In this document: positions 3,401-44,469 of the stretch, piece by piece
How positions within the stretch are numbered: the first letter of the stretch is position 1
Layout: the number at the start of each line of letters is the position of its first letter
Source: Ascidiella aspersa
Lineage: Eukaryota
NCBI GenBank assembly: GCA_963924565.1
Contig: OZ004610.1
Location: 27,900,001-27,964,000, forward strand
DNA: 64,000 nucleotides
Direction of reading: 5' to 3'
Program-made: the position numbers and the translations under genes
The notes under the pieces: generated by a model
Told to the model about the DNA's origin: nothing
Seen by the model: only the letters and a program-made list of their open reading frames with translations
The model's database searches: none

Positions 3401-3689
3401 TAAAGCACAAGACTAATAGTAACTGTGGTAAAAACATACCAAGTGCGCTAAGAAGTCAACGAGGCGTGGCAAATTCAGTGAAGCGTAACACGGCAGAAGA
3501 ATTTTTGACGAATCGCAGTCGTGTCCAGGCATACCATTGTCATTTCGGCGAAATAATTTTTCATGCTTTTTTTAACATTTTTTACGCCGTTTACCACAAT
3601 TTCACTTTCTTTTGCCTACGACGTATAAAACTGAACTACAATTAAATATGTTCGCGTTTTTTGTCATCAATATAATCAGATTGTCAATT

Positions 3690-4520
3690 CATTCAGATAT
3701 TTACAGCAAAATAGGTTTTCCGTAGCCCATTTGTGCTTAAAAACCAAAAAAAATTAAAGTTTGGGGGTACATTTGGTCGAACTTTTAAAAACTATCCGCA
3801 CATTAAAATTTCCTAAAAATTTACATACAACTACTAGAAAGTATTCTTAACAAGATAAGCATAGTCTCCCACTCTGGTCATTCAGATATTTTCAGCGAAA
3901 TAGGTTTTCCGTAGCCCATTTGTGCTTAAAAACAAAAAAAATTAAAGTTTGGGGGGTACATTTGGTCGAATTTTTAAAAACTATCCGCACATTAAAATTT
4001 CCTAAAAATTTACATACAACTACTAGAAAGTATTCTTAACAAGATAAGCATAGTCTCCCACTCTGGTCATTCAGATATTTTCAGCGAAATAGGTTTTCCG
4101 TAGCCCATTTGTGCTTATAAACAAAAAAAAGTAAAGTTTGGGGGGTACATTTGGTCGAATTTTTAAAAACTATCCGCACATTTAAAATTTCCTAAAAATT
4201 TACATACAACTACTAGAAAGTATTCTTAACAAGATAAGCATAGTCTCCCACTCTGGTCATTCAGATATTTTCAGCGAAATAGGTTTTCCGTAGCCCATTT
4301 GTGCTAAAAAAAAGTAAAGTTTGGGGGGTACATTTGGTCGATTTTTTAAAAACTATCCGCACATTAAAATTTCCTACAAATTTATATACAACTACTAGAA
4401 AGTATTCTTAACAAGATAAGCATAGTCTCCCACTCTGGTCATTCAGATATTTTCAGCGAAATAGGTTTTTGTGCTTAAAAACAAAACAAAAAAGTAAAGT
4501 TTGGGGGGTACATTTGGTTG
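3690..4520 (+). repeat. Tandem repeat, ~189-bp unit, ~4.4 copies (left arm of the TIR element)
   Basis: CATTCAGATAT recurs at 3690, 3879, 4068, 4258, 4440; diverged inverted copies at about 6900-7220. Confidence 0.95.
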
Positions 4521-6629
4521 CATACCTCTCTAGTAGCCTCATTAAGCTTATATGTGGCAAGTAATTTTAGGGTTTCACGTTTATTTTGTGTTAACCAAAT
4601 AATTTTTTTTGTAATATTTTGCAAATGGCGTCAAACGCAAAAATGGTATAACATACCTTGATCCTTTAACGCAGTGGTCGGCAAACTGTGAACCGCGACC
4701 CAAATGTTGGCCGCAGAGCCATTTTAGTGGCCGCGAGTTACTTTTAAATGGTTTATTGTTATCATGTAGTTGTGGGCCGCGTGATAGCCGTGCATTCATC
4801 GCACTTCGTTTTAAAAGTTTATGTGGCTGAGAATTACACTGTCTCAGCCTGGTTCAGGCCCGCGCGCCAAATGTGGCCATGTTCCTCCAACTGAAACCTG
4901 TAGGCGCAATTTTTTGCGTTTCGCGTGATAAATGTGGTTTATTTGCATAATACGTGTTGTTTCTGTTAGGGAAGAACACGTTTCTTAAATTACTTGATCT
5001 ATGACGTTACTTGTGACGTTAATGGTGCGGATTCTTATGTTCTTCTATCAGTTTTACTTTAATCCAGTGTTTCTTAACCTTTTTTGCTTAAGGGCGCACG
5101 TTAGAGACGTATGAAAACGTTGCGGCGCACCTTACGAGCGAAGCGAGCGCGAAATTTTTTAGGTGTACCGGTATTTCTCTTAAATTGTCTTCATTATGCC
5201 AATTTTGATGGTAATTGGCTTTTATGAATTTGTTGCTGATAAAACTACTTTTATTTGAACATTCTAACGTAGTTGGTTTCGGCAAACTTGTGTGTTCGTG
5301 TAGTATCAGCTTCTGTGCTTGCTACTGACCCTTGCTCTCAGTATGTTTTATCAAGTACACATAATAAAAGCACAACGTTTTCAACATCGTCACCATTGCG
5401 TGAAGGAATTTATCCGGGGGAACCAGACCGTAACCCAAAACAACACCATAGACCTTCTCTGGGGCTGTTACTATAGCAACCTCAAGGTCCGTGCGTCACA
5501 CTTGATGGTTTTCCATTGGTTTCCGGCTGAAGTGAAAATTTGTTTCTCTCTCAAGCAACCTAGAGAGTATTGCGTATTAGCTGCATTAGACGCTTTTCTA
5601 GTCGTCGTGTGTTCTAGCTTACTTGTTTGCGTATTTTATCAAAGGGAGCGTTGAACAACTTGCTAGCTGACACCAACCGAATCTGTAATTACAGTAAATG
5701 GAGTTTAATAAGCATATTGCGCAATTTTATCTGCTTTACACAAATTTGCGTAGTTCAATAAATATAGCCTAAAGCGTTCCACAAGCATGTGGCGAAAGTG
5801 TATTTTTTTATAGTGTCTATAAATCAAAACTGTTTTTATTGTCATGAGGAACCGCTGTGTTTGGGATAAGCTGTTTTTTTTCGAAGGTTAACCGAGATAC
5901 GCGACGCCTTTAGTTTAAAACAATTTTAGCAAAATAGGATAGGACATACTAAAAACATAACTCAGATTTTTTCAGTTAAGCGGAAAATACAGCTGGGGGT
6001 GGGGGGGCATGATCACCCTCCCTTGGATACGCCCATGTTTGTCGGTTAGGCCGAAGCGGTTCCGCTTCAATTCAAAGACGAACGTTGGTTCCGTTAAACT
6101 TGAACAAAGCAAGAAAAAAGGTTTGTGAGCGAACAAAGGACGCGAGAGTCTGCATCGCAAGGTTGTCTCGTACTTCGCTCGACATTTAGCACTTGTTGTT
6201 CAACCATTAGCGACTGAAAGTTTGAGATTTTGGTGAAAACCTTCTAAATGTAGCTCAGAAAACAAAAGCATAATTAAGTTCGGTTCAAAATATTTAAAAT
6301 TAATGCCTTTTTATTAGTTTTAATCGTTTTTTTAATTAAATGTTTGCCTTACTGAAGGTTTTGTCAACAAAATTTGTTTACTATGTTTTTGCAAAGTAAC
6401 ATGTCAAAAATTCACGGTAAATCTTGTATTATTTGACAACTTTTTTAGCCGGTTTTGGCGCAAATTTTTATGGTGGACTTACTTTATGACGTCATTAATA
6501 ACCGTTACTATCTGATTAACAGTAAAGACTAGCGAATAATTAAACAATAATTTAATGCCGTTTTGTCTTGGCTTTGTTTATTGTATTTTTGCTATCTTCC
6601 TTTCTAATAAACATACTTAGCCTTGTTGG

Positions 6630-6893
6630 AACAGCTTTGTGTAACTTAAACTTATGAATTCATTTGTCACATACCATAACGCATTACGTCATATATTGTG
6701 ACGTAGTGATATGTTAAGCTTTACATGAACATACCAAGTCTTGTTTGAGCAGCTTTGTGTCAAGTTAAACTTGTAACTTTATTTGTCATATACCAAAATG
6801 CGTTACGTCATATATTGTGACGTAGTGATATGTTAAGCTTTACTTGAACATACCAAGTCTTGTTTGAGCAGCTTTGTGTAAAGTTAAACTTGT
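6630..6893 (+). repeat. Tandem duplication, ~120-bp unit x2
   Basis: TTACGTCATATATTGTGACGTAGTGATATGTTAAGCTTTAC...CAGCTTTGTGT occurs twice in succession. Confidence 0.85.
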
Positions 6894-7996
6894 GCGAGTA
6901 AAATATCTGAATGACCAGAGTGGGAGACTATGCTTATCTTGTTAAGAATACTTTCTAGTAGTTGTATGGATTTTTTTAGAAAAGTTTAATGCGCAGATAG
7001 TTTTCAAAAATCCAGCTCAATGTACCCCCCAAAATCTGTGTTTTTTCCCAAAACCTCTTTTCGAGTTTTCTTTATGTTAGCAAAATCAATGGATTACGGC
7101 AATGCTGTTTCGGTGGAAATATCTGATGGCCTGAGTAGGAGACTATGCTTATCTTGTTAGGGAAACTTTATTGTTGTTACATTGTATTTTTTAGAACTTT
7201 TGGATGTGTGCAAATTCTTTAAAATTTATTCTAAAACAAAGATTTTAGCAGATATATTTAAAAAATGTGTTGTTGTTGTGACAACCTAAATGTATTGATG
7301 ATAATTAAGGCAAATCATCATTTATAAATCAGTTTTGTATGAGTTCAGCAAATGATAATGAATTTATGGTAAGCGGTTCGTAAAAGTGTGAAAAAAAGCG
7401 TAAAAAATTATTTCGCCGAAATGACAATGGTCCAGGCATGTATTGTATAGGTATTGGTATGACCGAAGATCGTGAGTTTGAGACTAGTTGTTTTTCTAGC
7501 CTGGCTTGCTTGAATTTCTTTAATTGATCGACTGATTCGGTTAGTCGGTTAAGACTTACGGCGTTGTGTTCACTTACGTAGTCCGCGATAGCTAGCACCA
7601 GTATGGCAGAATGCTGGCGACTTGGCGACTATGTCGGCCGAAGAATCAGCCAGAAAACCGAAGAAAAAAAAATTTTAAGTAAACAAAAAATTTAAAAAAA
7701 TTTTTTTTGAGTGGTTGTTTCCACACATATTGGCGCTGGTCTAGAATCCTACCACTTTTTTTTTGTTTTTTTTTTGTTTTTGTTTTTTTAGCGTCAGTAG
7801 GTACAGTAGCAAAATTTAGTTTTTTAAATGTAAATTCCAAAGGTAACAATAAAGCTAGTTAGGCTAGCCATATTTTTCCCAAAGGTGAAAGCATTTTCCC
7901 AATAAATTTGTACAGGGGGTTATTATCTTGCAAGTGGCGACACCTGGCGTATTTTATTGAAGGTTCACGGTCATATATGTTTGCATTTTGCCCGAA

Positions 7997-9105
7997 AATT
8001 TAGAATTGTGTAGTTGCCCTTGTGCTGGGTCTACCCTAATGATAAACACACCGTCAGAAAGATCCAACCCTCTTCTGTACAGCGAAAGCAAAAATAAATC
8101 CCTATATGCGTGGTGCGACGCCTAGCGGAACTCTTAGCGTACCCTATATTATAAATCTCTTGCCACTAGGTGGCAGCACAGAAACTCTGGTCGAGTCTTG
8201 AGGTAGCCTTATTCTATTCCTAAAACGTAACTATGAGTGCTTAGTGCATTAGCCTTTCTTTACAGAGTCGATTCTTTGGGTGTAATTTTGATGAAATATC
8301 TACGGCCGCCTAGCATACGAAATTGCATTGACGTGCGCAAGTCTTGAATCCTACCACAATATTTCGGCTTTTTGCCTGAATTTAGAATTGTGTAGCTGCC
8401 CTTGTGCTGGGTCTACCTTAATGATAAACACACCGTCAGAAAGAGCCAACCCCCTTCTGTACAGCTAGAGCAAAAATAAACCCCTATATGCATGGTGCGG
8501 CGCCTAGTGGAACTCTTAGCGTACCCTATATTATAAAATACTTGCCACTAGGTGGCAGCACAGAAACTCCGATCGAGTCTTGAGGTAGCCTTATTCTATT
8601 CTTAAAACGTGACTATAAGTGCTTAGTGCATTAGCCTTTCTTTACAGAGTCGATTCTTTGGGGGTAATTTTGATGAAATATCTACGGCCGCCTAGCATAC
8701 GAAATTGCATTGACGTGCGCAAGTCTTGAATCCTACCACAATATTTCGGCTTTTTGCCCGAATTTAGAATTGTGTAGTTGCCCTTGTAGTGGGTCTACCC
8801 TAATGATAAACACACCGTCAGAAAGAGCCAACCCTCTTCTGTACAGCGAGAGCAAAAATAAACCACTATATGCATGGTGCGACGCCTAGCGGAACTCTTA
8901 GCGTACCTTATATTATAAAATACCTGTCACTAGGTGACAGCACAGAAACTCTGGTCGAGTCTTGGGGTAGCCTTATTCTATTCCTAAAACTTAACTATGA
9001 GTGCTTAGTGCATTAGCCATTCTTTACAAAGTCCATTATTTGAGGGTAATTTTTCTGGAATATCTACGGCCGCCTATAGCATACGAAATTGCATTGACGT
9101 GCGCA
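7997..9105 (+). repeat. 382-bp tandem repeat, ~3 copies (left arm)
   Basis: Marker motif at 8163, 8545, 8927 (period 382); units re-contain the terminal GAATCCTACCAC motif. Confidence 0.95.
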
Positions 9106-9129
9106 AAGACCATCTGCATTTTTATGTTT

Positions 9130-10940
9130 GACGCCGATGTATTAGATTAAAACAGTTGCTGGACCAATCGCGCATACTGGTCATAGAGGTCCTTGGACTG
9201 ATATAGCCAATTGAGAGAAGCGTGGTCAGTCCGCAAAGTAAAACCTTGTCTTAGGAGATAGCAGCGAAATAACTTGGTGGCATAAACGACCGCTAATAAT
9301 TTTTTGCGCCGGGTGGAATAATTTCGTCCTGTTTTAGTTCTGCTGCCATAGGCTATGACATGTTCTTTTCCCTCTTTCCACTGCGCTAACACACATCCAA
9401 TGGCAAAATAAGACGCCGTTCTATGCCATTCAAAACAATACGCATTAGTCGCTGGAAACCAGCAGCGGAATTGCAAAGACCCATTGGCATCACATTGAAC
9501 TCGAACATACCCATGTGGCTCGCGAAAGCGGTCCTTTTCGCGGGAAGTCTTATCCATAGGAATTTGCCAATACCCAGATTTTAAATAGTGTAGGCTACTA
9601 AAATAGGTGGAGTTAGATAAAATATCGAGGCTTCGGTCTACTGTAGCTGTTTTTCTTTGTCACCTCATTTAGGCCCCGATAATCAATGCAAAAACGAGTT
9701 TTATCTGATTTTTCCTCACGAGTACTATCGGGCTCGACCATGAAAATGACGATGGACGTATAAAACCTTGAGCCTTCATCTCGTGGACGATTTCGTCCAC
9801 TTTCTTCTTCTCAGGTGGTACCATCCGACGAAAGGGTTGGTCCACTGGGCGAGCATCTCTGGTGTTAATCACATGTTCGACGAGATCAGTTCGTCCTATT
9901 TCTGCTGAGTGGGTCGCAAACGATCTGTGACCATGTTGCAAAAGGTCTGTATCCGTGCGAGCTCGCTTGTTGTAAGACCGCCACCAATTTCAATTTCGTC
10001 TGTAAAATCCTTGTGGTTTTCTTCAGTTGGGCATACGAAGCTGACGCTCTGTTGGGTAGAGCAAGAAAAGTCCACGCATCCGCGGTCATTACAATAACAT
10101 GGGTGTGTTTAGTTTGTGACCTATTGTGGCATGGGCAAATGACAGGATTTCGGGACACTACGACAGGTTACGTTTAACTTTAGCCTTCAAACAGTTCCAT
10201 ACCTTTCTCGTATGATGGTAACTGCTAAGCCCGTATCAACAAGGGCGCGCACTGACAGGTTTTCTATCATAATATTAACGAAGGAATGAGGCCTTTGACC
10301 AGATGCGATTTGTACGATAGACTGTTTAGGTAAATCACCGAGGTCAAACCTGCTAGCGTCCTGGTCCAGTGGCTGGTAATAGCCGGAGCGAAGGTCGGCT
10401 ACCTCTTGTCGTAAATGGTCGATCGTTTCCATAAAATCCCCTATTTGGCGTTGGAATTCCTTTCGGAAAGCTGTTTTTTTTTATTTTATTTTTTTTTCCA
10501 GGCAAAAAACTCAGAATAAAGTTATACCCATGTCAATGCTTTAAGCTACCGTTTATTTGTTAGAGTGAATATGGGAGAGCTACCACCTCCGGACAACCGT
10601 TTCATCCAATAAGGGAGAGGAACGGAATCCATATAGAGGGGAGGCGCCGGGTTGAATGGGTATAAGACGGGGTCTGCAGAAACACTCTCCGTCGTAGCAT
10701 TATTGCTAATTTGGCCTACATTCTGTGAGGGCTGGCACGCAATTCTGGGCGGCGCTTTAGTAAAGTCGCGCTTTTTTGACACGTTCTTACTAATTGCAGT
10801 GGCGAGTGTTCTGTCGCTCAAGCCGCGCAGTAGAACCATACATAACCTCATTTTTTACTGTAGGCTTGTCGCCGCCGTCTGGGTACGCTTGTTCGCCATC
10901 GTTTCGCAAACGTATTCTCTTATGCTTTCGTTAACCATTT
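9130..10940 (-). pseudogene. Degenerate Gypsy remnant A (protease, partial RT, RNase H)
   Basis: ALVDTGLAVTII; EIGRTDLVEHVINT...IRPSSFSWSSPIVLVRK; AIGCVLAQ...VIAYGSR...FTLRTDHASLNWL; multiple frameshifts and deletions, no integrase or LTR. Confidence 0.88.
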
Positions 10941-10989
10941 GACCACTTTCTAGCAACTGGTCACGTTTATCAACGCTTTGGTAAAGCAA

Positions 10990-13440
10990 GTTCAATTATA
11001 GCGCACCGTATGTCATGCCACGGGTGTTGGCTTCAAGTGACGTACTGCCTCTGAATAGCTGCAAGGCGTGGAGCTTGGTGCAGATGGTACACCTGGTAAA
11101 TCTCCCAGAACTGCGGGTGGGGTACCATATACCAGTTCTGTCGACGACGTGTGTAGGTCCTCCTTTGGAGCGGGTTGTATGCCCAGTAGCACCCATGGAA
11201 GTTGAATAACCCAGTTGAGTCCGTTTAGGCGAGCCATCAACGCAGACTTTAGATGGCGTTGGAATCTCTCGACGAGTCCATTTGACTAGGGATGATAAGA
11301 AGTGGTGCGATGAATTTTCACACCGAGCGTGTTAATTATACTTGACTATAGTTGTGAAGTGAACTGGTGGCGCCACGATCTGATGTAATGTCCGCGGGAA
11401 CACCGAAGCGGCTTACCCAGTTGCTAATAATACACGTGTACAAGTAACGGTCGTTGCGTCTGGCATCAGAACAACTTCCGGCAAACGTTTAAATCTATCC
11501 ACCATTGTTAATAGAAAGCTGTAAACTTGACATAAAGGCAGGAAACCAACAATATATATGTTCACATGATCGAAAGGCTTACCTGGATCTGCATACCTTA
11601 CCAGCGGAGCTGCATTGCTTAGCCCACCAACCGACTTGTTTGTGGAGGCCGTGCCGAACATATTTTGAGGATATGATTTTTCTAGTGGTCCGAATAGACG
11701 AGTGCGATAAGCCATGTTTGACGTCAAAAGTTTGCGGTGACAAGGTTGTAATATAATGGGACGATGATATCCGGTGGACGTATCACATAATAAAACAACT
11801 CTTGACGAGCCAAGCGGAATCTGTTCGATATATAGGCCATAGATAGCTGTTGTGTAAGCTTCAACTTCCGCACATTGTTGTGCCGCACCTAAAGATGCGT
11901 AATCGATGTTAAGTACATCATTTTGACGAAGATTTATGGATGACAAGCGAGAGAGTGAATCGGCCGCACAGTTGTTTTACAAATATGCTGTACATCCGTA
12001 GTAAACTCAGCAATTTCAGAAATATGTCGTTGTTGCCGCGCAAACCATGGATAAGATGCTTTTGCAAACGCGAAGGTTAAAGGTTTGTGGCCGGTAAATG
12101 CGGTAAACCTACGCCCTTCTAAAAAGTACCGAAAATTTTTCGACCGCCTGGTTAAGGGCAAGTATAGTTCCCTGTCGAACATGATGTACCTCGTTTCTGG
12201 TGGCCGCAAATAACGACTGAAAATGCTAACGGTTTCCAAACACCATCAATTTACTGTCCCAAAACGCCGCCAATAGCTTTATCCGAAGCATCCACTCCAT
12301 CCGTTTGATGGTAGATGGTACAGGACATTATCTGATTATTTATACCTTTTGAGGAAGTGGTGCTGCTCCATTCTTGTTGATATGATGCCTTCAAAAGTCA
12401 CTTTCTGCGACTCCGAATATGCCATTGTTTGCGTTAATACCTAACCCATGTTGAGCTAAACGGCGAAACAGTTGTCGCAAATTTTGCCTGTGCTCTTGGA
12501 CAGATGAGCTGGCCACAAGTATATCATCAATGTAGACGAAGACAAATGTCAGGTCTTGGCAAACCGTATCCATAAGACGCTGAAATGCCTGCGCTGATCC
12601 CGAAAGGCATTCGTATGAATTCAAATAAGCCAAATGGGCTTATGTTTGCGGTCTTGGGATTATCTTTCTGTGCCACTGTGCCACTTCAACCTGGTGATTG
12701 TGCCACTGTGCCACTTCAACCTGGAGATACCAGCGTACTAGATCAAGTTTTGAAAATACATTTGCGCCAGACAGGAGCGCAGAAAAATCTTGTAAATGAG
12801 GAATTGCGTAGCGACCTGGTTCTGTGACTGCATTAAGTCGACGATAATCGCCACAGGGGCAAGGGTGATTAACAACCAACAGCTTGCGGAACGCCGAATA
12901 AAATCCATTTCCAACATTTTGCTGAATTCAGCTTTTGCAAGTTGCAATTTTTCTGGTGGCAGTCTTCGTGCTCTTGCGTGAATCGAATGAACTGCGGTAA
13001 GAATATGAAGTCCACACCATGTTTCGTCAATGTTTGTAAAAAGCTTGTAGCCTACAGGAATTCTGAGGAAACTCCATGATTATGTCATTGTAGCTACTTT
13101 TCAACTTTGCTACTGTGTACAATCCTTGAGGCGCTTGTGACGCTGTATGCAAGGCGATGCTAGTGAACGACATAGCATTTACAAGGCGTCGGCGCCGCAG
13201 TTCCCCCAACGTGAGTGAGCTCTGAGAAAATGAACGCCAAAGAGGGGGCGGGAGCCATTCGCTAAAATAAATTTCCAACAAAGTGTGCCTGAAACCAAAA
13301 ACGCGGACACGACGTAGTAATATTTTGTGTCATCAGCAGTTATTCGTTTCAGATCGAAGTGTGCTACGGTCTGCTGAAACCACACGCGCGGTTTGAAGTC
13401 CAGAAAATTGGTAGTTTTAAAGAAAGAGCGTTTTGTTGTT
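10990..13440 (-). pseudogene. Degenerate Gypsy remnant B (gag N-terminus, RT, RNase H, integrase), same broad family as the element at 1-1407
   Basis: LKLPIFWTSN..WF..ITADDTKYYYVVSA (gag start), PCGDYRRLN, FVYIDDILVAS, FLEGRRFTAFTGHKPL, LLTMVDRF, LPWVLLGI; frameshifted. Confidence 0.9.
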
Positions 13441-13442
13441 TG

Positions 13443-14205
13443 GGCAAAAAGCCGAAATATTGTGGTAGGTTTCTAGACTTGCGCACGTCAATGCAATTTC
13501 GTATGCTAGGCGGCCGTAGATATTTCATCAAAATTACACCCAAAGAATCGACTCTGTAAAGAAAGGCTAATGCACTAAGCACTCATAGTTACGTTTTAGG
13601 AATAGAATAAGGCTACCCCAAGACTCGACCAGAGTTTCTGTGTTGCCACCTAGTGGCAAAAGATTTATAATATAAGGTACGCTAAGAGTTCCGCTAGGCG
13701 TCGCACCATGCATATAGGGATTTATTTTTGCTCTCTCTGTACAGAAGAGGGTTGGCTCTTTCTGACGGTGTGTTTATCATTAGGGTAGACCCACTACAAG
13801 GGCAACTACACAATTCTAAATTCGGGCAAAAAGCCGAAATATTGTGGTAGGATTCTAGACTTGCGCACGTCAATGCAATTTCGTATGCTAGGCGGCCGTA
13901 GATATTTCATCAAAATTACACCCAAAGAATCGACTATGTAAAGAAAGGCTAATGCACTAAGCACTCATAGTTACGTTTTAGGAATAGAATAAGGCTACCC
14001 CAAGACTCGACCAGAGTTTCTGTGCTGCCACCTAGTGGCAAGAGATTTATAATATAGGGTACGCTAAGAGTTCCGCTAGGCGTCGCACCATGCATATATG
14101 GGTTTATTTTTGCTCTCTCTGTACAGAAGAGGGTTGGCTCTTTCTGACGGTGTGTTTATCATTAGGGTAGACCCAGCACAAGGGCAACTACACAATTCTA
14201 AATTT
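13443..14205 (-). repeat. 382-bp tandem repeat, 2 copies, inverted (right arm)
   Basis: Reverse complement of the left-arm unit; marker motif at 13641 and 14023. Confidence 0.95.
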
Positions 14206-15129
14206 TCGGGCAAAATGCAAACATATATGACCGTGAACCTTCAATAAAATACGCCAGGTGTCGCCACTTGCAAGATAATACCCCCCTGTACAAATTTATT
14301 GGGAAAATGCTTTCACCTTTGGGAAAAATATAGCTAGCGTAACCAGCTTTATTGTTACCTTTGGAATTTACATTTAAAAATCTAAATTTTGCTACTGTAC
14401 CTTCTGCCGCTAAAAAAAAAAAAAAAAGTGGTAGGATTCTAGACCAGCGCCCACATCTATTTTACAATTGGCATAAATTATTTTTTTGTGTCATTTTGAA
14501 AAAAGTTACGGTAGTATGAAGCACGTTGTTGTCACAAAAAATGTCACAAAAAATTTTTTTAATGTCACAAAAAAAAAAACAAACAGGAATTAGCGCCCAC
14601 AATGTTACGAAAAGACAAAAAAATTTTGTTATCACAGCAAATCATTCAAGGAAATAATTTTATTACAAGCAAAACTTTATTACAAGGAAAATGCCCCGGA
14701 CCCAAGGCGCCAGGTCTCTTAAATAAAAAGTTTCAACAATTTTCGATCAATTTTTTTAGGCGCTACGCGCAAATAAGCTACGTTTTGCACTTACCAAAAT
14801 ACGTGTTTTTAACTTTTTATTTTATTTTATGACGGTATTCCTAAAAGCTTGGATTCCACCCCCGGAATCCTGGATCATACCCTGGTCATCAGTAGCGTGC
14901 TTGTTTTTTGGACTGAGCAGTTGGTAACCCTGGCTATATGGCAACGAAAATATATGTTTATTTGCAACTTGCGATTTTCAGTTTTTTTTTAAGAATTGGT
15001 GCTGGTAAATCTTTCAGGGCTTTTAATTATTACCTCTGAGTATACATTTAACTTATTACCACCAAACACAGAGACTTGGTTAGCAAATGATTTTTTGTTT
15101 AGTAAACATTTTTAACAGATAAACGTAAA

Positions 15130-15849
15130 ATGGAAGATTCGCTGCTCAAAAATGAAGTGGAAGTTTTACCTGGAATAGTTTGTCGGCTGTTGAACGAAAA
15201 CGATTTGCCCGAAATTAACAAATTGGTTGCGGATCATTACAGCTACCAACAGCCAATGAGACAAACGTTTAAACTTACAAAAGAAGACATCGGAGATTTG
15301 GACATTAGAGAGGCAATTGAAAACTTAAAGAGTAATTGTTCGCTCGGAACTTTTGTGAAAAAAACTGGAGAACTCATTGCGGTTGAACTGAATGTAATTT
15401 GTGATATAACGGACAGTAGAAGTGCAAAAAACAGTCCTGTTATGAGCGAAAGGCTTTCGGCTGCAATGAGATACAAAGAATTTGTCCTTGGTGATATTTT
15501 TTCTGATTTGAACACCAAGCGTTATATGTGCGGCCGAAAGGCGTGCGTGAAGTCGGAATATCGTTCCAAGGGGATATTTTCAGCTTTGGAAAATGTGAGA
15601 ATGCAGATTGCCAGATCAAGAGGCTGCGAGTATTTGGCTGCAATATCAGTCAACAAATACACCCAAAGGGCTATGAAAACTGCTGGCTACAAAGTGTTTA
15701 GAGATGTGCCGTATATTGATTACGTTGACCCGAAAACAGGCTTAAAACCAGATTTACAACTATCTCCAATCCACACTTCGTGTCAGATGATATACCGAAA
15801 GGTTCCACTGATTGCTGACACAAATATCCTCACCGAAAGTAAACTTTAA
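15130..15849 (+). CDS. AANAT-like GNAT N-acyltransferase with C-terminal PTS1 (-SKL)
   Basis: Intronless 239 aa; acetyl-CoA motif A CVKSEYRSKGIFSAL, AISVNKYTQRAMKTAGY; ends ESKL-stop; splice acceptor at 15118. Confidence 0.85.
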   Translation: MEDSLLKNEVEVLPGIVCRLLNENDLPEINKLVADHYSYQQPMRQTFKLTKEDIGDLDIREAIENLKSNCSLGTFVKKTGELIAVELNVICDITDSRSAKNSPVMSERLSAAMRYKEFVLGDIFSDLNTKRYMCGRKACVKSEYRSKGIFSALENVRMQIARSRGCEYLAAISVNKYTQRAMKTAGYKVFRDVPYIDYVDPKTGLKPDLQLSPIHTSCQMIYRKVPLIADTNILTESKL

Positions 15850-18800
15850 TGGAAAGATTTTTCTCGCTTTGTCTACACCAATATATTGGAATGGTTTCTC
15901 TGAAATCATGTATTTCATTTAGTCTTCAACCGACTATAACGTTAATTTGGTCTTCAATCGAATCAAAAGTAATTTTAGTCTTAGCCTACATGTTATGATA
16001 AATGTTATAAGTTCATATGTGTTTTCTTTTATTACTAATATGGAAAGCGAATACGCCGATAAAATCGAACATTAATCAAACCTGGCGTACATAAGTTTGA
16101 CCTGCAAATCGCGTTTTCTATTTGAATGAAAAGAAAACGGTCACTATAAATGTACATACACCCACAGGCTTAACTTGTACCCAATTTGTACAAATATAAA
16201 ACTCACCAATCGATTTTCTTCTATAAATATCTCGTTCAATTTAATTATCAGTATCCATCCATTTTTTATCTTTGTTTCTGTATGACAGCCAATACTTGTT
16301 TTGCGTCATGTGTCTTTTGAATTTTCATATACGTAAAAAATTTTGCCCTGCGCCGCAATCCTCATTTGCAGTCCCTAGTCGAGTCCCGAGTCCGGCTCCG
16401 ACTTTTCCAGTCCCGAGTCCGGCTCCGACTCTACAGCCTGTATTTCACTCATAGGTAACTTCAATAAGTTGGATATTCAGCGATCCACTCATAGGGGTGT
16501 CATGTATTAATTCATCCAACCACAATACATGTTTAAAAAATACTCCACTATTTCTATTAAACTTTTACAACTTACAGTTTGCGGCCTTAACAGTTTCGTA
16601 ATTTGGGAAAGCGCACGTGCTTGCCGGACACGGATTCAAGTAGTTTGACTCGAGTAAGTCCCGAGTCCGATTCAACAGCCCCCAAATGAACTGCACCCAA
16701 GAAATATTTGAGTAATTTAAACCTATTCTGAATATCACAACGAGAAACGTGATCTAATTTCTATGTATTTGTTGGTTACATTTCAATAAAATAAAGTAAT
16801 TTCAACCCTAAAGATTAGAACGTAGACTAGATGGATTTTTGTGTGCGTTTTTTGTATATCGTTCACTTTACACAGTGCCTTTTCTGACATAATAATCTTG
16901 GTGTGTTATCTATAGTCAAGGGGACCATCTGCTAAGACTACAAACTAAGCACGCTACTACGAAAACATATGCACATTATACTTATAACTGGGGCGAATTC
17001 AGGATTTTTTTCTAAGGGCATCAAAATATGCTAAAAAATGGTTGTTCTCTTCGCCAAATGCAGCTTAGGCAGCTTAATCGCGTGAACTGCGGAAAATGTG
17101 TTTATTTGGTTGAATTGGCAAAACAATTGTAATACAAAGAAGATGACGCCTTCAGCAAGTGGAAAGGCGTCAATGTAAATGACAATTAAAATACTTAAAT
17201 AGTAAAATTTTTTTAAAATAGTAAAATTTTATCCTAGAAAACGAAAGCTACAAATAAGCTTTGGCGCTGCATGGTCTAACCCTAGAATCCTACCCCATGT
17301 TTTCCAATAACGAAAAATACAGTTACGAAACGCAAGGGAGAAATAAATTTGGAAGAATAGATATTATGATAATATTTGACCAGGAAAACTTAATAGCATA
17401 AAAGCAGTATCTTAACATTCCCATAAATTATTTCAATGTAATTTGTGTAGAGAAAGACGCATGTCTGTTTGTGCTTGTAATTATAGCGTGTTCGCCTGGT
17501 AAAGTGTTAAATATTTCACCTTGATACTCATTTCCTTTCGTGGCCGTTCTGGCAAATCTAGCCGACATTCGACTCTGCTAATCTCCATCGCAGTCGCTCT
17601 TGTGCTATATAGTGTCACGCTGCTGTTGGATTAAACACTACAGTCAACTGATGCATGCCATGCGAGACCCGTTTTTACTGCGCTGTAAGCTCTTTTATTG
17701 AAAGCGAGCTATGCTAAATTATGTGAATGTACAATAAATCTATAAGCGACCTGACAGTATGCACTTTGAAATGCTATGACAGTTTGTTTAGTTTCGATTT
17801 AGTGGAGTTCAGATAGCACGGTGGTCATGTCTAACCTGTTGAAATATACATTTGTGACATCATTTTGGGGTAATTTTTATTTATTAAACGTAATTCGCGA
17901 TTTTAAAGGGGGTAATATAAATCCATTATTTTATTATCAGCGGTAAAACAATATTAAAAAGGTCAAGAACCACTGCTTTAAACTAAAAGTACATGGTTAG
18001 AAAGAAAATATTTGCTATCACGAAAGACAACGCACTGTAGGCTAGTTGTTTTTCGAGCCTGCCCTGCTTGCATCACAAATCAACAGATTCGGTGAGTCTG
18101 TGATGGCTTTCGGTGTACTAATTATACGTAAGCCGTAGTCGTTGGTCAAAAGCAACTTCAGAAGGGCTGGATCTCAGTTGTTAACACACATATGTGTGCA
18201 TGTTTCATTGTTTTATGTTAGACTTAGGCTTGATGGGACCTATAGCGATATTTCTAATGTTCGGCCTTATTTGTGATAAACATCCACTCTTATTTCTTCA
18301 ACTATAAGCCTAATCCAAATAACTACATATATTTCGCCTACAATTTAAGTTTGCGGTCTATAAATATTTTATTTTAATATTTTTTTGATGTAGCTGTAGC
18401 ATTTAGCCTACTTTTACGTCACTATACACGTGACCATTGTCCACTGATGTGTGACCGCTGCGCCTAGCGAATTGCTTTTCCGCATTTGACAATTCATTCT
18501 ACTTACTACGTCTTACTGATTAGCGGCTTGAATCACCGCTATGTTTATCGCTGTATTTCTGAGATTTGTGAATATACTCTAAGAGCAACTATCTACTGAG
18601 TGGATTGTCTTTGCTTAGAGTACAAGAAGTTAAGGACAGGTATTCTAGCGGCCTGCTCCTTTGGAGTCGGATTAAGAACTTGTAAGAGACTTAGGCAGCC
18701 GTCGGCCCTCGTCTACAGGGTCAGCAGCCTTCTTATAGCTCCCTACGAACTCTCCACGCTTCAGTAGCAAACCTATTTTTTAATTTGGTCAACGGAAAAT

Positions 18801-23487: not shown

Positions 23488-24881
23488 ATTGGTAGTCGTG
23501 CAGTCCTGTACGCCCTACAACATGAAATCCAACACTCAAAAAATAAAATGGTACCTCAATTCGACATATAAGATTTAGGTGTTATATCGCTAGTCTAAAT
23601 ATTACCATGACCATGAGCCAAAGTCTTAAAGGCCTATTTTAGTTGTTCGAAATATCGATTTAGCGCTAGAGGTTAGGTATGAAATAGGCCTTTTTCTGAG
23701 AGTAAGCAAATTATATTGATAAATCTGCAACAGAGTACATGACAAACTGCCAACTTGCTTAAAAAAAAATAATTATTTTGACCTATTGTTTAAACAGGTG
23801 TAATTCCTCTGCGATTTTTCTCTTCAGGATTGTATGAGCGGCAGGTGGGGCGTTCGACACTCTATTAAAACAAAATATGTCCGAACTTTAATTTAGGTCA
23901 CTTTAAGCAGGGCTACAAACTTCCTTCTTTATTTGATTATGTGGCGCGTTTGGATTGACAGGCCTTCCAAAAGCCTTATTACTTGAAAAGATAAAGCGTT
24001 TGTAAGCAGTCACAAGATGTTTGACCGCCGCGTAATGTCGCCAACGTGTTACGGATGACGTCTATAAGAAGTAAATTAAGAATCAAAGCGGATCCGTATG
24101 TTTTTAAGTTACAAAGGTTTTGGACACTTGATTACATAACATTTCACATACTGGCATCATGTTTCAGAGGAAAGATTTATTATTCATATAGGCATGGCGT
24201 TTAAAAGGCCGTTTCATTTCGGATTTAAGTGTGGATCTACGTTTAGTTAACTTAAATAATTCTACAAATGCAGATTTCAACTTGCAAGTTGGTAAAAGTA
24301 GTAATTGTGCGGAGTTAGTACGATGTCAATGGCAACAACCGACATATGGGTAAAGTATAAAATAGAAAATACGTTAATTTATGAATTAATGCTATTTGCT
24401 GATGGACAAAACAATTCCGTCCTGAAGCTAAATGGGTCCATGCAATAAAACTTTTTTAAGTTTTGGATTATTAATCAACTATACTGTCCTAGTCGAAGCA
24501 TATTTTTTCTTATTAACTTTCCATGACAATAACACATTTGCAAGCTGGTTTTCCTCAACAATAAATAAGTAAACTTGCTGTACCTCGTTTTTTTTTCATT
24601 TTACTTTTGAAATAAATACATTCTCGACTTGTAGTAATCAAAGTGTACATAACTCGACCACAAGGAAAATGAGAAACAGTTTAGTAAATTAATTATTAAC
24701 ACATATGTGTGCTTCATGACGTTATGCTACCTTGAAGAGAGCAAAACAATCATAAGAAAAGAAGGCTGGTGGTGGTCACAAGACACAATATGATGAGCAA
24801 CTCTTGTTTGCAGAACTGTGGTGAGCTTATAAACACAGTAGCAGTTTGTGTCTATATGGTGTTTATATTTTGAACTGAAAA

Positions 24882-25523
24882 ATGACTACACAGCAAACCC
24901 ACAGTGATTTGACGTTTCGTGTTATGACCATGGAAAATTTTGACATTGCGTATGAATTCGTTCTTAAAAACTACACCTACAATGAGCCTTTGCGTAAAAT
25001 GGTAACTGACCGATTAGAAACACTGCCTAAAATAGACCAAGAACGAGTGAAGTCAAAGCTTAAACATAACTGTTCTATTGGTGTATTTACCAAAGAAAAT
25101 GCTATGGTTGCTGCAGTATTTAATGGCATTTCGACCAAGTGTAATGCATCGTACTGCTGCTTTCATCCCAATATTAAAAAAGGCAATTGGCTCGAACTTA
25201 TCTCCGACCTTGTGAAGTACTTGGAGGGCAACCTTTTCGACGAGTTGGGCGTCAGCAAATTTATGATGACATCAATGCTTGCCGTCCATCCTGACTATCA
25301 AAAACGCGGCCTTGCCACTGACTTAATTCGCAGAAGTGAGGTCTTGGGACAAGACTTTGGGTGTGAATGCATCCTTACTGATGCATCCAGTCATTACAGC
25401 CAAATGGCATACAAGAAGGCAGGCTATACAAAGCTGAAGGAAGCTTTGTATTCTGAATACATTCCTGACTACAAAGCGGTACCCCCACACATGTCGGCTG
25501 CTATTTATTATAAAAACTATTAG
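24882..25523 (+). CDS. AANAT-like GNAT N-acetyltransferase
   Basis: Intronless 213 aa; YTYNEPL, LAVHPDYQKRGLATDLI (motif A), DASSHYSQMAYKKAGY; TATAAA at 24828. Confidence 0.9.
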   Translation: MTTQQTHSDLTFRVMTMENFDIAYEFVLKNYTYNEPLRKMVTDRLETLPKIDQERVKSKLKHNCSIGVFTKENAMVAAVFNGISTKCNASYCCFHPNIKKGNWLELISDLVKYLEGNLFDELGVSKFMMTSMLAVHPDYQKRGLATDLIRRSEVLGQDFGCECILTDASSHYSQMAYKKAGYTKLKEALYSEYIPDYKAVPPHMSAAIYYKNY

Positions 25524-25926
25524 GCCCTTAACTGTTTTATGATGTTCATGCAAAACATTATTATTAGCTTTCTTACAGAAAAAAATGAATTCCAATTCTG
25601 ATTGTTTAAAAGATATTACTGTATTTTATTTGTGTTTTTACTGTAATTGTTAATTGCAATTACACTTTTATAACTGTTTAATTTGATGTTATTTCCAAAC
25701 CCGCCTAGTAGTATTGTAAACAATAGTATATTAGATTACAAAAATACCTCACTCTTTGTCGATGCATTTTTTTAATGACTATTAGATTGTCATGAGTTCC
25801 AGCATCATTGCTGATACAAAGGCAGCATTGGTGTAATTTTGAGTTAAATACTGCCAAAAATGTTTTGAGGCCAAATGATAAATCATGCCTAATGTTTGTT
25901 TATAGATTTAAGTTTTCTTTAGTTAT

Positions 25927-26799
25927 ATGAAGTTGTTTAATTTTCTTTTGGGGTTTGTGATGGACAGCAACAGGAATTTCGAGAAAAGTATGAAGCGCTA
26001 TCAATGCAATTTGTTGCCAGAGCTTTTGGCCAAGGCAGTCAAAGAACTTAACGAGCCAGCATGTAATGACTTGCGTCTGGAAGCGATCGATTCTCTAAAA
26101 TCCGCCTTCGCTAAAACAACAACCGGATCGAAGCTGCCTCTGCAAAGTGATGAAACAGTACTCCGCTTTCTGAGAGCGAAGAAATTTAACCAGGAAAAGG
26201 CACTGGCCATGATGGAAAACTATCACAGGCAGAAAGAAGCATGGTCTGATGTGTTTGAAAAGGTCCGGGACCCAAGTAGAGTTAGAGGAACTTTGTCGGC
26301 AGGCTGCGTTGTTCCACTGTCAAAGCCAGCATTGGATGGATCAGCAGTTTTGTTTGGTTGTTTAGGTCGTCAGGAAAATATGCTCATGGTTGATATGATA
26401 GCCTGTGTTGTTCTAAGCTCGGAAAAGCTCCTCGAAAATGAAGCGACGCAAATTAACGGCATTACTGTTATAAACGATTTAACACACTTTGATTTAAATT
26501 TAGCCAAACAAATGACACCGGCTCTAAGCAAGCGGTTTATATCCCTGATGCAAGATGCAATGCCAATCCGACTTAAAGGCCTAATTTTTGTCAATGAACC
26601 GAAAATTTTTGACATTATTCTGGCTTTCAGCAAACCGTTTATGAAAGACAAAATGAAAAAGAGACTTCACACATACGGCACAAACTTCGTTAAGTTGCAC
26701 AAGTACATTGACAACAATTTCTTGCCAAAGGAGTATCTTGGCCAAGGCCCTGAACTTGATTCACAAAAATGGGTAGATTGCGTTTTCTGTGAATCATGA
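25927..26799 (+). CDS. CRAL-TRIO (alpha-TTP/clavesin/RLBP1-like) lipid-binding protein 1
   Basis: KAVKELNEP, LRFLRAKKF, QINGITVINDL, QDAMPIRLKG, LPKEYLG; the true start may be a downstream ATG (25960 or 25990). Confidence 0.9.
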   Translation: MKLFNFLLGFVMDSNRNFEKSMKRYQCNLLPELLAKAVKELNEPACNDLRLEAIDSLKSAFAKTTTGSKLPLQSDETVLRFLRAKKFNQEKALAMMENYHRQKEAWSDVFEKVRDPSRVRGTLSAGCVVPLSKPALDGSAVLFGCLGRQENMLMVDMIACVVLSSEKLLENEATQINGITVINDLTHFDLNLAKQMTPALSKRFISLMQDAMPIRLKGLIFVNEPKIFDIILAFSKPFMKDKMKKRLHTYGTNFVKLHKYIDNNFLPKEYLGQGPELDSQKWVDCVFCES

Positions 26800-27559
26800 G
26801 TTTCGTTTGATTTTTGTTTGACAGATTTCAACGTTACAGTTAGCAGTCACTGCCTGAAAACAATTTCACTGTGATATTATAACAGCATTTTCTGAAGGTG
26901 TCTAGACCGTTTTGTAAAGATTTCAAAACTACAATTGCACAATATGATAATGGTCAGCAAACAATTTTGTTCATCTTTTTATGTTGTCTATTTTTGGTAC
27001 GGATTGTAGAGGTACAACGTTTTGTGCAAAACTGTTTTTGCAGTGTTAATTCCTGTTTTGCCTCTTTTTCAGTTGGCTATAGTGTTACTTTGTTTAAGTT
27101 CTTTCAAATTAGTGAATTTCTTTTTGCTAAAGTGCTTTATGTACTTAAGAGTGTCATGATTTTGTTTGTTTGCATACACTAAGTCTGCAATTTACCACTG
27201 TTTAAGATTATTTTTCAATTATTTAGTTACCTTTCCATACTTTCTCCTAAGCACCAGCCTTTTTTATTAGGCACTAGCTTTTTACTAATTTGTTTAAAAC
27301 CTAAATTCTGGGTTTTGAATGAGATTCAAATGAAATAAGAAAAGAAAGAAAACAGCAATGAATACAACAATCACATTTTTTTGGACGTAATGTGCAATTT
27401 ACCCTTCTGGTATAGACATGAAGATAATTATGAAGAGGGTTTGCTAACAGACTGAAAAAAAATTTTCCGAAAAGATTGTTCATCATTTTTGACATAAGTA
27501 AGGTAGATAAAAAGTCACAGTCATAATTCCAATATCTTTTATTTCCACAGGTCCTTAAA

Positions 27560-28378
27560 ATGACTAGGTATGAATGTAAATTGTGTCCTGCTGTTCTGGC
27601 CAAGGCAGTTGAAGAGTTAAACGAACCAGAGGATAACGTCGAAAGATTGGCTGCAGTAGACAAGCTTCGTGAGGCATTCAAAGCAAATACAGACGAACTG
27701 AAACTCTTTCGCTCCGACGATGAATTCATTCTCCGCTTTTTGCGTGCGAAAAAATTCGACCAGAAAAGGGCCCTAAAGATGCTGATTAACTACCACGTAC
27801 AGAGGCAGTCGTGGCCAGAGGTGTTCGACAAAGTCAACAACCCAGCGCTGCTTACTCCTCTCATACAAGCGGGCTGCGTTTACGGCATTCGCAACGCTTG
27901 CAAAGATGGCAGCTCACTCTTCATGGGAAAACCTGGGAAGCAAAAAGACATGGTAATGACAGATTTCCTAGCCGGCCTCTTTCTGACTATCGAGAAGCTT
28001 CTAGAAAATGAAGAAATGCAGGTGCATGGCTTGACCGTCATTGAAGACATGTTCTACATGGACATGTCTGTCGCAAAACAGATGGGCCCGACATTTGCAA
28101 AGAGATTTCTTAGCATTTTGCAGGACTGTTTGCCTGTGCGATTGAAGAGTATAAATATGTTAAATGAGCCTACTCTTTTTGACGTCCTTTTCGCTATCGT
28201 CCGGCCTTTCATGAAGGAAAAAACCAAAAAACGTCTTCGCATACTTGGAACGCAGTTTGAGAAGCTGCATGAAAAAATTAATCCCTCTGTCTTGCCAGAA
28301 TCTTACGCTGGCACCGGGCCGGAGCAGGACATTGATGGATGGATGCACATACTTCTTGGTGGAGAAACTAATATTTAA
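27560..28378 (+). CDS. CRAL-TRIO protein 2
   Basis: 272 aa, DDEFILRFLRAKKF, QDCLPVRLKSI, LPESYAG; candidate 53-nt 5'UTR intron 27498-27550; AATAAA at 28407. Confidence 0.92.
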   Translation: MTRYECKLCPAVLAKAVEELNEPEDNVERLAAVDKLREAFKANTDELKLFRSDDEFILRFLRAKKFDQKRALKMLINYHVQRQSWPEVFDKVNNPALLTPLIQAGCVYGIRNACKDGSSLFMGKPGKQKDMVMTDFLAGLFLTIEKLLENEEMQVHGLTVIEDMFYMDMSVAKQMGPTFAKRFLSILQDCLPVRLKSINMLNEPTLFDVLFAIVRPFMKEKTKKRLRILGTQFEKLHEKINPSVLPESYAGTGPEQDIDGWMHILLGGETNI

Positions 28379-28537
28379 ATGTGCATTAATTTGCCTTGTA
28401 CATTTAAATAAAGATTTATTGTCATATAGAACATTTCAGGGACTTGTAGCACATCTTTGTACCAAAGAAATATTTGCACCGCTGTGTAGTGTTTTGTGGT
28501 GTGGTTTTCTGACTTTATGACAGCAATTTATCTAGAA

Positions 28538-28882
28538 CAGCGGTTCTCAACCAGTGGGCCATTGAAACTTTTTCGGTGGGCCACAGACCTATTTAAAAAA
28601 GCTAGATTTGTTGAATAATTTAGTTTAATTCATGACACTATACCTAATTATACAGGGATAATGGCTTGGGGAGGAATTGAGAAGGAATGTAAATGAGCGT
28701 AAATTTATTTTTCAGAAGCAAGCACCTCACTAATGCACGGTCGAATATATAATCTGTTTTGTTATATGCTCTGCTATTTTTTGTTCTAAAACTTTTTTAT
28801 AGTTTTTTTTTTTAAGTTGATTGGGCACAGAATTTTCGTGCAACGAAAATGGGCCACAAAAGAAAAAGGTTGAGAAGCACTG
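28538..28882. mobile_element. Charlie-type hAT MITE, TSD ATCTAGAA
   Basis: CAGCGGTTCTCAACC...GGTTGAGAAGCACTG with perfect 8-bp TSD; absent from the paralogous position near 30930. Confidence 0.92.
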
Positions 28883-29331
28883 ATCTAGAAAATTGACTTT
28901 TTTTAATGCCAATGAAAAGCCTCTCACAAACACTACACATAACAGTAAAACAATTTTGTTTTTAGTTATTTTACCTCCCACAACTTGCACCAGCCATGTA
29001 CTACCTATATTATATATTATATATTCCAGTTAAATTCATCTGGTTTGTCCCCAATCTGTTGTGTCATGATATTACACATTTTTATTCGCCTATATATTTT
29101 CTTTATTCAAATTACTTTTCACCTCAAAATACTAATATTGCTTACTTGCCTTTCCAAAACTTTTAACACACTTTTATGCAAAAAAAGACTTTTCCATCAA
29201 CATACAAGTACTACTTTACTGATAAGTATGAAAAATAATTGATTTATATGTTTGTGCATTTTTTTATATTTATGCGAGAATAATTAGGGTGAATGTTTTG
29301 TCATGTAGGCCGTTCTTTTAGTTTAAAAACA

Positions 29332-29491
29332 ATGGGTTATTTTTCGTTGATAAGTTTCGTTGCACTTTGCCTGGTTTCTTCTGCGTTTGCCTGCACGCCG
29401 GTAAATTGCACTCATGATGACCTAATTGGTACCTGGAACTTTTACTTTTCCGAGGGCGGACATGACAGAACACTGGACTGTTCAAAGCCAG
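29332..29491 (+). pseudogene. Orphan duplicate of cathepsin C exon 1
   Basis: Near-identical to 31288-31447 with intact ATG and donor but DTPANC changed to CTPVNC; no exon 2 follows. Confidence 0.9.
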
Positions 29492-29960
29492 GTTTTTATC
29501 ATTTTGTTTGTTAATAATATTAATATGTGTTTAAAACACCAAATTAGGACATCTGTACAAATTTAAATTTATGGCAATCCAACGTCTATTGAAGTGATAA
29601 AACAATTTAAATGAAAACCAACTTGTTTTTAGTCAAAATAATGCCTATTTTGTTGCTGAAACATTGTATGGAAATATGTTGTAATTTGCAGAAATCTAAG
29701 CGAAATCTATGTTTTTAATGCTCTAAATGAGGTATTGTTTTGTGAATTTAACAAAGTATATATTTCTAATAAATAACCTAAACAATTGTGGGTATAGTAG
29801 GCCAGCAAATATGGGTCTATACCCACTCTAAAATATCATCAATAAGTAATCATGCTATGTATTTTATTATCTGTATCTGTCCATTGGTTTAAATCCAGGT
29901 AAGGTGAATAAAATGTAACAGTAATAATTCCAATATCTTTTGTTTCCTCAGGTCCTTAAA

Positions 29961-30779
29961 ATGACTAGGTATGAATGTAAATTGTGTCCTGCTGTTCTGG
30001 CCAAGGCAGTGGAAGAGTTAAACGAACCAGAGGATAACATCGAAAGATTGGCTGCGATAGACAAGCTTCGTAATGCGTTCAAAGCAAATACAGACGACCT
30101 GAAACTATTTCGCTCCGACGATGAATTTATCCTTTGCTTTTTGCGTGCAAGAAAATTCGACCATAAAAGAGCTCTAAAGATGCTGATTAACTACCATGTA
30201 CAGCGGCAGTCATGGCCAGAGGTGTTCGACAAAGTCAACAACCCAGCGCTGCTTACTCCTCTCATACAAGCGGGCTGCGTTTACATGATTCGCAACGCTT
30301 GCAAAGATGGCAGCTCACTCTTCATTGGAAAACCTGGGAAGCAGAAAGACATGGTATTGACCGATTTCCTGGCTGGCGTCTTTCTGACTGTCGAGAAGCT
30401 TCTAGAAAATGAAGAAATGCAAGTGCACGGTTTAACAGTTATCCAAGACATGTTCTACATGGACATGTCTGTTGCAAAACAGATGGGCCCGACATTTGCC
30501 AAGAGGTTTTTTGGCATTTTGCAGGACTGTATGCCTGTACGATTGAAGAGTGTGAATATAGTCAATGAGCCTACTCTTTTTAACATCGTTTTTACTATTG
30601 CTTGGCCTTTCATGAAGGCAAAAACCAAGAAACGTCTTTCCATACTAGGAACGCAGTTTGAGAAGCTGCATGAAAAAATTAATCCCTCTGTCTTGCCAGA
30701 ATCTTACGCTGGCACAGGCCCTGATCAAGATATTGATGGATGGATGCACACACTTCTTGGTGGAGAAACTAATATTTAA
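29961..30779 (+). CDS. CRAL-TRIO protein 3 (tandem duplicate of protein 2)
   Basis: 272 aa from ATG 29961, closely similar to 27560-28378; acceptor at 29951, donor at 29899. Confidence 0.9.
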   Translation: MTRYECKLCPAVLAKAVEELNEPEDNIERLAAIDKLRNAFKANTDDLKLFRSDDEFILCFLRARKFDHKRALKMLINYHVQRQSWPEVFDKVNNPALLTPLIQAGCVYMIRNACKDGSSLFIGKPGKQKDMVLTDFLAGVFLTVEKLLENEEMQVHGLTVIQDMFYMDMSVAKQMGPTFAKRFFGILQDCMPVRLKSVNIVNEPTLFNIVFTIAWPFMKAKTKKRLSILGTQFEKLHEKINPSVLPESYAGTGPDQDIDGWMHTLLGGETNI

Positions 30780-43506: not shown

Positions 43507-44469
43507 TTAAATGTTCGGCGTGCTTACAGCTTCAACTTTAGCTGCTTGAGCAGTGTGAAAGTTGCGCGGGCCGGCTTTCTTGGCCCGATTGCTGAAAGCG
43601 ACTATTTCCGTCCAATTTTCGAAAGAGAGCACAGCGAACATCACGTGGAGACACATGTCGATACTGTAAATTAAGTTAATATGATGCAACGCGTTGTCAC
43701 GATGCAAGTTGATCATAAACGATAGAGCCACGTCACAAGCTAAACCACAAGCTGTGATCGCTGCTATACGTTTGGCGACGCGCAAAATCTCTTGCGCGTG
43801 TCTGCCGCGCAAATGAGAGCGCAGCGGAAAGAGGAACTGGAAAACCAACGATGCTCGTGCCACCCACATCACACTGACCAGCAAATACTCCGGACAACTG
43901 GAAATCGAAACCGGACCGTCGTCGGTGCAGCCAGTTCCAGAATCTTCAGTCGCATGAACGTACGCGTAATAAGACTGAACCGCGAATATACCGAAAAGGT
44001 ACAGCGACAGTATCGACCATTTGAAAAGTTTCAACAGCGGGTTGATGTCCTGTATAATGGATATGTTTACATACAGGTAATGGAGTCTCAGCCAAAAAAG
44101 CAAGTAATAACATAAAAAGAAATATAGAAAACAAATAACGCCCAAAATGGTGGCAATCCTGCAGTAAACCTGTGACCCAACGCCATGCTCTAGGTCTAGG
44201 TTGAGAACAACTTGGTCAGAAACCAAACCTATTAAGCCGAAAACAAACGTTGAAAGGCTAACGAAGTAAATTGGCCTGCGGGTGACCTTCATCCCGTACG
44301 AAGAGTTCCCAGCCTTTTTCCATTTTCCGCTGCGTATCCCGTAAACCACGAAGCTGCCGATGAGCCAAATTAAGCCGACAATTTCAATAACGTTCAAGGC
44401 CCTTGCTGCTGCATTCCATTCGGGTGGACCCAGTCGAGAAAAATTACCGGACTCGTTTCCTTTCAACAT
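43507..44469 (-). CDS. Orphan intronless 7TM (GPCR-like) protein, copy A
   Basis: 320 aa, about seven hydrophobic segments, N-terminal sequons (NES, NFS), Cys at top of TM3 (YCR) and in loop 2 (GC), TM3 end motif YLLFWLRLHYLY. Confidence 0.85.
   Translation of the reverse strand: MLKGNESGNFSRLGPPEWNAAARALNVIEIVGLIWLIGSFVVYGIRSGKWKKAGNSSYGMKVTRRPIYFVSLSTFVFGLIGLVSDQVVLNLDLEHGVGSQVYCRIATILGVICFLYFFLCYYLLFWLRLHYLYVNISIIQDINPLLKLFKWSILSLYLFGIFAVQSYYAYVHATEDSGTGCTDDGPVSISSCPEYLLVSVMWVARASLVFQFLFPLRSHLRGRHAQEILRVAKRIAAITACGLACDVALSFMINLHRDNALHHINLIYSIDMCLHVMFAVLSFENWTEIVAFSNRAKKAGPRNFHTAQAAKVEAVSTPNI

Follow-up and report, generated by a model that had tools for sequence, protein, structure and literature searches.

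A Merlin-type transposon family of Ascidiella aspersa carries tandem CTCF-consensus sites in long inverted arms

The window, a stretch of 64,000 nucleotides from the ascidian Ascidiella aspersa (GCA_963924565.1, contig OZ004610.1, positions 27,900,001 to 27,964,000 of the forward strand), contains a non-autonomous DNA transposon of the Merlin superfamily, the inverted arms of which are built of tandem 382-bp units that each carry a word resembling the consensus binding sequence of CTCF. The element and the nearest host open reading frame comprise the following features (window coordinates):

7724..7731, plus strand: left copy of the 8-bp target-site duplication, worn, with 6 of 8 bases identical to 14452-14459
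7732..14451, no strand assigned: whole non-autonomous Merlin-type DNA transposon, 6720 bp, recognised by its tips and arms; member of a dispersed family with the transposase in longer copies
7732..7755, plus strand: 24-bp terminal motif starting with GG, from its sequence a likely transposase site; the tip is common to MITEs of about 200 bp
7986..9106, plus strand: left array, 2.9 units of 382 bp
8163..8176, plus strand: CTCF-consensus site, no mismatches
8342..8357, plus strand: copy of the terminal motif inside the unit, a candidate extra transposase site; one per unit, with a low count of parsimony changes
8497..8510, minus strand: second word like the consensus, weaker and oppositely oriented, one per unit; two mismatches here, three in most units
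8545..8558, plus strand: CTCF-consensus site, no mismatches
8927..8940, plus strand: CTCF-like site, two mismatches
9107..13438, minus strand: interior, broken pieces of a Ty3/gypsy-like pol, without transposase
13442..14215, minus strand: right array, 2.0 units of 382 bp
13643..13656, minus strand: CTCF-like site, one mismatch
14025..14038, minus strand: CTCF-consensus site, no mismatches
14428..14451, minus strand: right 24-bp terminal motif
14452..14459, plus strand: right copy of the target-site duplication
15130..15849, plus strand: neighbouring host open reading frame outside the element, a GNAT-like paralogue (25% identical, at E 1e-19, to the open reading frame at 24879 that has PF00583)

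The inverted arms of the window copy are about 1 kb long and about 95% complementary to each other, with a strict tip of 24-33 bp, and the arrays of 382-bp units that a first-pass annotation had described are present in both of them (2.9 copies on the left, 2.0 on the right), every unit being closed by a copy of the terminal motif. The ends GGCGC...GCGCC are found in the window copy and in nine of ten other two-ended copies, and the tenth has a single change at its right end. The 8-bp target duplications of 11 two-ended copies are perfect in six, match at 7/8 positions in one and at 6/8 in the window copy, and are poor in three. The 382-bp period approximates two nucleosome repeat lengths, which may be coincidence. 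Each unit also contains a TATA-like stretch directly before the CTCF-like site and a TGACGT word. Profile matches in the interior identify gypsy-like domains (RT_RNaseH at 9150-9659 and 11937-12245; RVT_1 at 12394-12639) with no intact gene among them, the family transposase was not found there by blastn and tblastn, and several other family copies have the same interior at about 96-98% identity.

The 382-bp unit has at least 117 matches in the genome (40 of 90 candidates were scored), and the family copies examined possess 1-8 units per arm and arms of about 0.6 to 3.3 kb. The same tip occurs at 2369 places in the genome (G000), as opposed to none for the reversed control, often in pairs about 200 bp apart that constitute short same-tip elements (MITEs). 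Longer copies with the same arms have exons adjoining one arm that match PF12762 (DDE_Tnp_IS1595) above the cut-off. In one of these (G000 C4:2206024-2207539 = L071:231-1746), five GT-AG exons form a 303-codon frame with no internal stops, which contains three acidic catalytic motifs; an open five-exon model was obtained in one of the five copies tried, the same anchors yielding none for the other four. This transposase is the likely source for the long-armed family as well as for over a thousand short same-tip elements, and a longer copy would supply it in trans to copies such as that of the window. Exon 1 of the model includes a stretch of the CxxC type that a zinc-ribbon profile matches weakly (E 0.009, below the cut-off). 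An assignment to MULE or hAT was rejected, PF12762 having been found within family copies. Two truncated copies (L048 and L050, at 14.34 and 14.57 Mb of G000 C3) lie about 230 kb apart and have one flank in common, oppositely oriented, and so form a segmental inverted duplication.

The Merlin superfamily, as described in PMC8101967, is defined by GG tips, duplications of 8 or 9 bp and a DDE_Tnp_IS1595 transposase, is known from ascidians, includes several families with internal tandem repeats, and has terminal inverted repeats of 24-462 bp; the members described there are without the zinc finger of IS1595. The present element is assigned to Merlin because it has GG tips at its 5' ends and 8-bp duplications and because longer copies encode a DDE_Tnp_IS1595 domain, and it has internal tandem repeats in common with members of the superfamily. 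It differs in its arms, which with 1-8 units exceed the described range of terminal inverted repeats, and is a structural variant, non-autonomous and with long arms of the Foldback type; no Merlin arms of this length were found in a record-level literature search. Long, internally repetitive inverted arms are shared with Galileo and similar Foldback-like elements, and the tandem repeats in the long arms of Galileo hold further transposase sites (PMC3688188). By analogy, the terminal-motif copies of the present units may likewise be transposase sites, and tandem amplification of the unit would probably have brought in extra sites of this kind. Galileo is, however, a P-element with a THAP domain, whereas the present element is a Merlin with candidate transposase sites predicted from its sequence.

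Five CTCF-like sites had been proposed in the arms, and all five were recovered when the 14-mer CCASYAGRKGGCRS, the consensus given in the first-pass annotation, was scored by IUPAC matching: those beginning at 8163, 8545 and 8927, and two reverse sites for which the annotation had given the starts of 16-mers (13641 and 14023), the 14-mers beginning at 13643 and 14025. Three are perfect, the reverse copy said to have one substitution has one mismatch, and one site has two. The fit to the consensus is as close as had been claimed and is beyond chance, a perfect match having arisen in 1 and a match with at most one mismatch in 7 of 3000 dinucleotide shuffles of the unit; the five sites count as one event because all are copies of one site. 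Invertebrate CTCF orthologues prefer a 3' terminal cytosine (10.64898/2026.10.19.759930), and the 14-mer, which ends in G (position 14) and is followed by C (position 15), may conform to this preference depending on the register. The site is also a near-palindrome, TGCCAC-3-GTGGCA, and its opposite strand fits the consensus with three mismatches. It might accordingly be read as the site of another, dimeric protein, with an incidental match to CTCF, and the arms of the palindrome are indeed perfect over 6 bp in the form of the site that has C at motif position 1; but the palindrome is broken in the older form with T at this position, the site shows no excess conservation, and it does not resemble the transposon tip, so that this reading is very improbable.

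The perfect consensus occurs 349 times in 309 Mb of the host genome, compared with 12 occurrences of the reversed pattern and 43 of the pattern with the central AG swapped, and at least 64 of the 349 fall in the Merlin family. Among 40 dispersed sites sampled outside the family, 38 have sequences of their own, although a few resemble the ends of other repeats, and an alignment of the 40 contains nothing strong beyond the 14-mer except one column inflated by three repeat copies. By these counts, the host genome has a genuine signal of the CTCF type; given the genome-wide enrichment, the arm site is probably recognisable, and its binding by CTCF is plausible. The proposed spreading of CTCF-consensus arrays by a mobile family is supported, the consensus being enriched outside the family also. 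No locus could be called as the host CTCF gene with six degenerate zinc-finger patterns and two Pfam searches (candidate loci from four of the searches and 30 of the 95 matches of one pattern were translated), which is no evidence of its absence.

The element that carries the gypsy insulator of Drosophila is an LTR retrotransposon; its sites are those of Su(Hw), and it has been proven to block enhancers. Like it, the present element is mobile and bears an array of sites for an insulator protein, but it is a Merlin and not an LTR element, and its sites are predicted. Among DNA transposons, CTCF binds the hAT-Tip100 repeat 274 and hAT-Charlie of the lamprey (PMC5504073) and non-autonomous elements of the zebrafish (PMC7182764). 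In these cases, as in the present one, a young family spreads canonical CTCF motifs throughout the genome; the lamprey and zebrafish families, in contrast to the ascidian family with its predicted sites in tandem arrays in both arms, are vertebrate and backed by ChIP. A literature search, mostly at record level and without figures or bioRxiv supplements, returned no description of CTCF sites for Merlin elements or for the transposons of ascidians.

Conservation of the site was assessed in 107 units found by a whole-unit search that disregarded the motif (L050, a duplicate of L048, and two misaligned units were omitted), with expected parsimony changes derived from base-matched columns. The 14-mer has undergone 31.0 changes versus 31.4 expected (P 0.52), positions 2-14 lean to fewer changes than expected (22 versus 28.7, P 0.21), and the rare variants of the motif number 14 versus 14.2 expected; a separate run, in which 9 of 110 units were left out and one unit with a misaligned motif was kept, agrees in finding no conservation of the motif. 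Within the 107 units, the terminal-motif copy has 14.8 changes versus 32.3 expected (P 0.008) and is not conserved by the rare-variant measure applied to the whole set (P 0.85), and the outward-facing weak word has 19.1 versus 35.6 expected (P 0.017), its rare variants likewise showing no conservation. A larger but biased set gave conservation of positions 2-14 (P 0.005 with 131 units) and 26 motif-breaking changes versus 42 expected (131-133 units), and was set aside because the added units came from an exact motif search. Since the copies are young (92-98% alike), the test has low power; at that power, purifying selection on the motif relative to its flanks was not detected in these alignments. 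A motif that stands out no further than the remainder of its unit was among the outcomes that the first-pass annotation had named as refuting its insulator model. Units that deviate from the consensus make up 46 of 110.

At motif position 1, 76 units have C, which gives the perfect match, and 56 have T. Divergence within the T-form units is 8.2%, compared with 5.6% within the C-form units, and two relics at 77-79% identity have the T form; the perfect match is therefore likely derived, and an ancestral site with one mismatch would have become perfect through a T-to-C change in a younger subfamily. Only three columns, including base 1 of the motif, have different majorities in the two groups, one of the three by definition. 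Arms with a majority of C units average 2.74 units and those with a majority of T units 1.74, some loci being incomplete at their ends, and the C form and the longer arrays are a single lineage event. A single-copy fragment of about 100 bp (L124:1480-1580, at G000 C3:3155480), 77-79% identical to the unit and with the T-form motif intact, is either an old relic or a host source of the site; because it was found via the motif, the intactness of the latter is not independent evidence, and a search with the fragment retrieved only the known family.

The element is a non-autonomous Merlin with long, internally repeated arms, in which we consider the CTCF-consensus site likely to be a passenger, one that host CTCF may bind but that probably forms neither loop nor boundary. 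Selfish recruitment without loops would give the site a greater role: the arms would bind host CTCF repeatedly, the ends or the transposase gene would be kept open or shielded from silencing, and long copies would be helped to move. In keeping with this, the perfect site is fixed in three copies bearing transposase (L031/32, L037/38 and L045/46) and almost fixed in a fourth (L039/40), the younger subfamily, with its longer arrays, is marked by the perfect form, the consensus is a real signal in the host genome, DNA-transposon families of lamprey and zebrafish are occupied by CTCF, and sea-squirt CTCF is described as retaining a regulatory role apart from folding (10.64898/2026.10.19.759930). 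The unbiased set of 107 units, however, shows no excess conservation, the T-to-C change is one event, and the short same-tip elements are far more numerous, yet all six of those checked have no CTCF-like word within two mismatches, so that recruitment is an unlikely explanation, if one to be kept in mind. A fuller version holds that a Foldback-like Merlin evolved arm arrays of host CTCF sites, perfect in the youngest subfamily, as protection from silencing through the recruitment of CTCF, and is now the source of about a fifth of the perfect CTCF-consensus sites, a mobile supply of convergent pairs in the sister group of the vertebrates, where CTCF binds without looping; this we regard as distinctly unlikely. 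If the arms do recruit CTCF for protection, CTCF would be shown to serve a selfish element independently of loop extrusion.

The convergent CTCF sites that anchor vertebrate loops reportedly include some derived from transposons. The motif pairs of the present family have the same forward-reverse orientation, the sites of the left arm pointing right and those of the right arm pointing left, and they face inward in 16 of 16 two-armed copies in which each arm has units, as well as in two further copies. Convergence, which the first-pass annotation had emphasised, is thus an accurate description of the sites, but it is dictated by the inversion of the arms and is no evidence of function: since both arms are the same sequence in opposite directions, each copy will hold any directional motif as a convergent or a divergent pair, and the 18 inward-facing copies amount to one observation with even prior odds. 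No convergence beyond this structural constraint was found.

The inward-facing sites had suggested a mobile insulator cassette, the convergent arrays of which would anchor a loop round a cargo and separate a repeat nest from a gene cluster. The gene cluster does start about 680 bp downstream as proposed (ATG at 15130, 679 bp beyond the element end at 14451), and the left flank is the more repetitive, 25% of it having repeat matches against 0.84 Mb of fetched loci versus 12.5% of the right; repeat fragments lie on the gene side as well, however, and no boundary is shown. The interior bracketed by the arms is decayed retrotransposon sequence that contains neither the transposase nor any other intact gene, and each unit also carries the weaker outward-facing word. 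Convergence matters where CTCF blocks cohesin. Lamprey loops provide further convergent CTCF anchors in vertebrates (10.64898/2026.10.19.759930), and vertebrate anchors need this block, which tunicate CTCF fails to provide in the assays of two preprints, both on species other than the present host: TADs are absent from Ciona Hi-C, and the CTCF of sea squirts binds many vertebrate sites but does not insulate (10.64898/2026.10.19.759930); tunicate loop and insulation scores are at baseline, and Styela CTCF does not rescue loops (10.64898/2026.10.19.760054). The spacing signature of convergent sites is reported to be retained in tunicates (10.64898/2026.10.19.760054), which speaks for a cassette. 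With an orientation forced by arm symmetry, a site without excess conservation, and other tunicates without CTCF-dependent loops or insulation, the case for a mobile insulator is weak, and we judge it highly improbable.

With the site most probably a passenger of the Merlin arms, the result is a modest one: a long-armed Merlin family, and a transposon of a non-vertebrate chordate that seeds CTCF-consensus sites, the source of no fewer than 64 of the 349 perfect ones, the spreading of such sites by transposons being already known from the DNA transposons of lamprey and zebrafish. Inverted-repeat elements of this kind can distort motif-only statistics on convergent CTCF sites, and the family offers a natural test panel for the effects of tunicate CTCF once bound, with 1-8 sites per arm and two alleles of the site.

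The open reading frame at 15130 had a read depth of 0 in the bin 15311-15874, which covers most of its length, in one RNA run (about 6% of the reads), and a homologue search with it found none; the one named homologue of a gene flanking the element is from Phallusia mammillata (57%). RNA reads matching the arm number 60, on both strands and none at least 99% identical, and are not assignable to the window copy. The arm (window 7790-8370) is matched, mostly at 90-99% identity, in runs X4, X6 and X8, which bear three other organism labels; relatives, mixed samples or horizontal transfer could account for these matches. Three small contigs (G000 C11, C52 and C54; L064, L065 and L117) have, as judged by eye, IS-type transposases beside Rho- and SecB-like open reading frames and look bacterial, probably derived from a symbiont or a contaminant; C54 also has a long C2H2 zinc-finger open reading frame. 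Elsewhere in the window, three related open reading frames of about 345-380 codons with no Pfam match (43507-44547, 50780-51811 and 53892-55043) lie in inverted and direct duplications, and a cluster of long single-frame genes at 24879-30779 includes one GNAT and three CRAL-TRIO open reading frames. Just left of the Merlin element, at 3689-7227, lies another element with inverted arms and tandem units of 189 bp.
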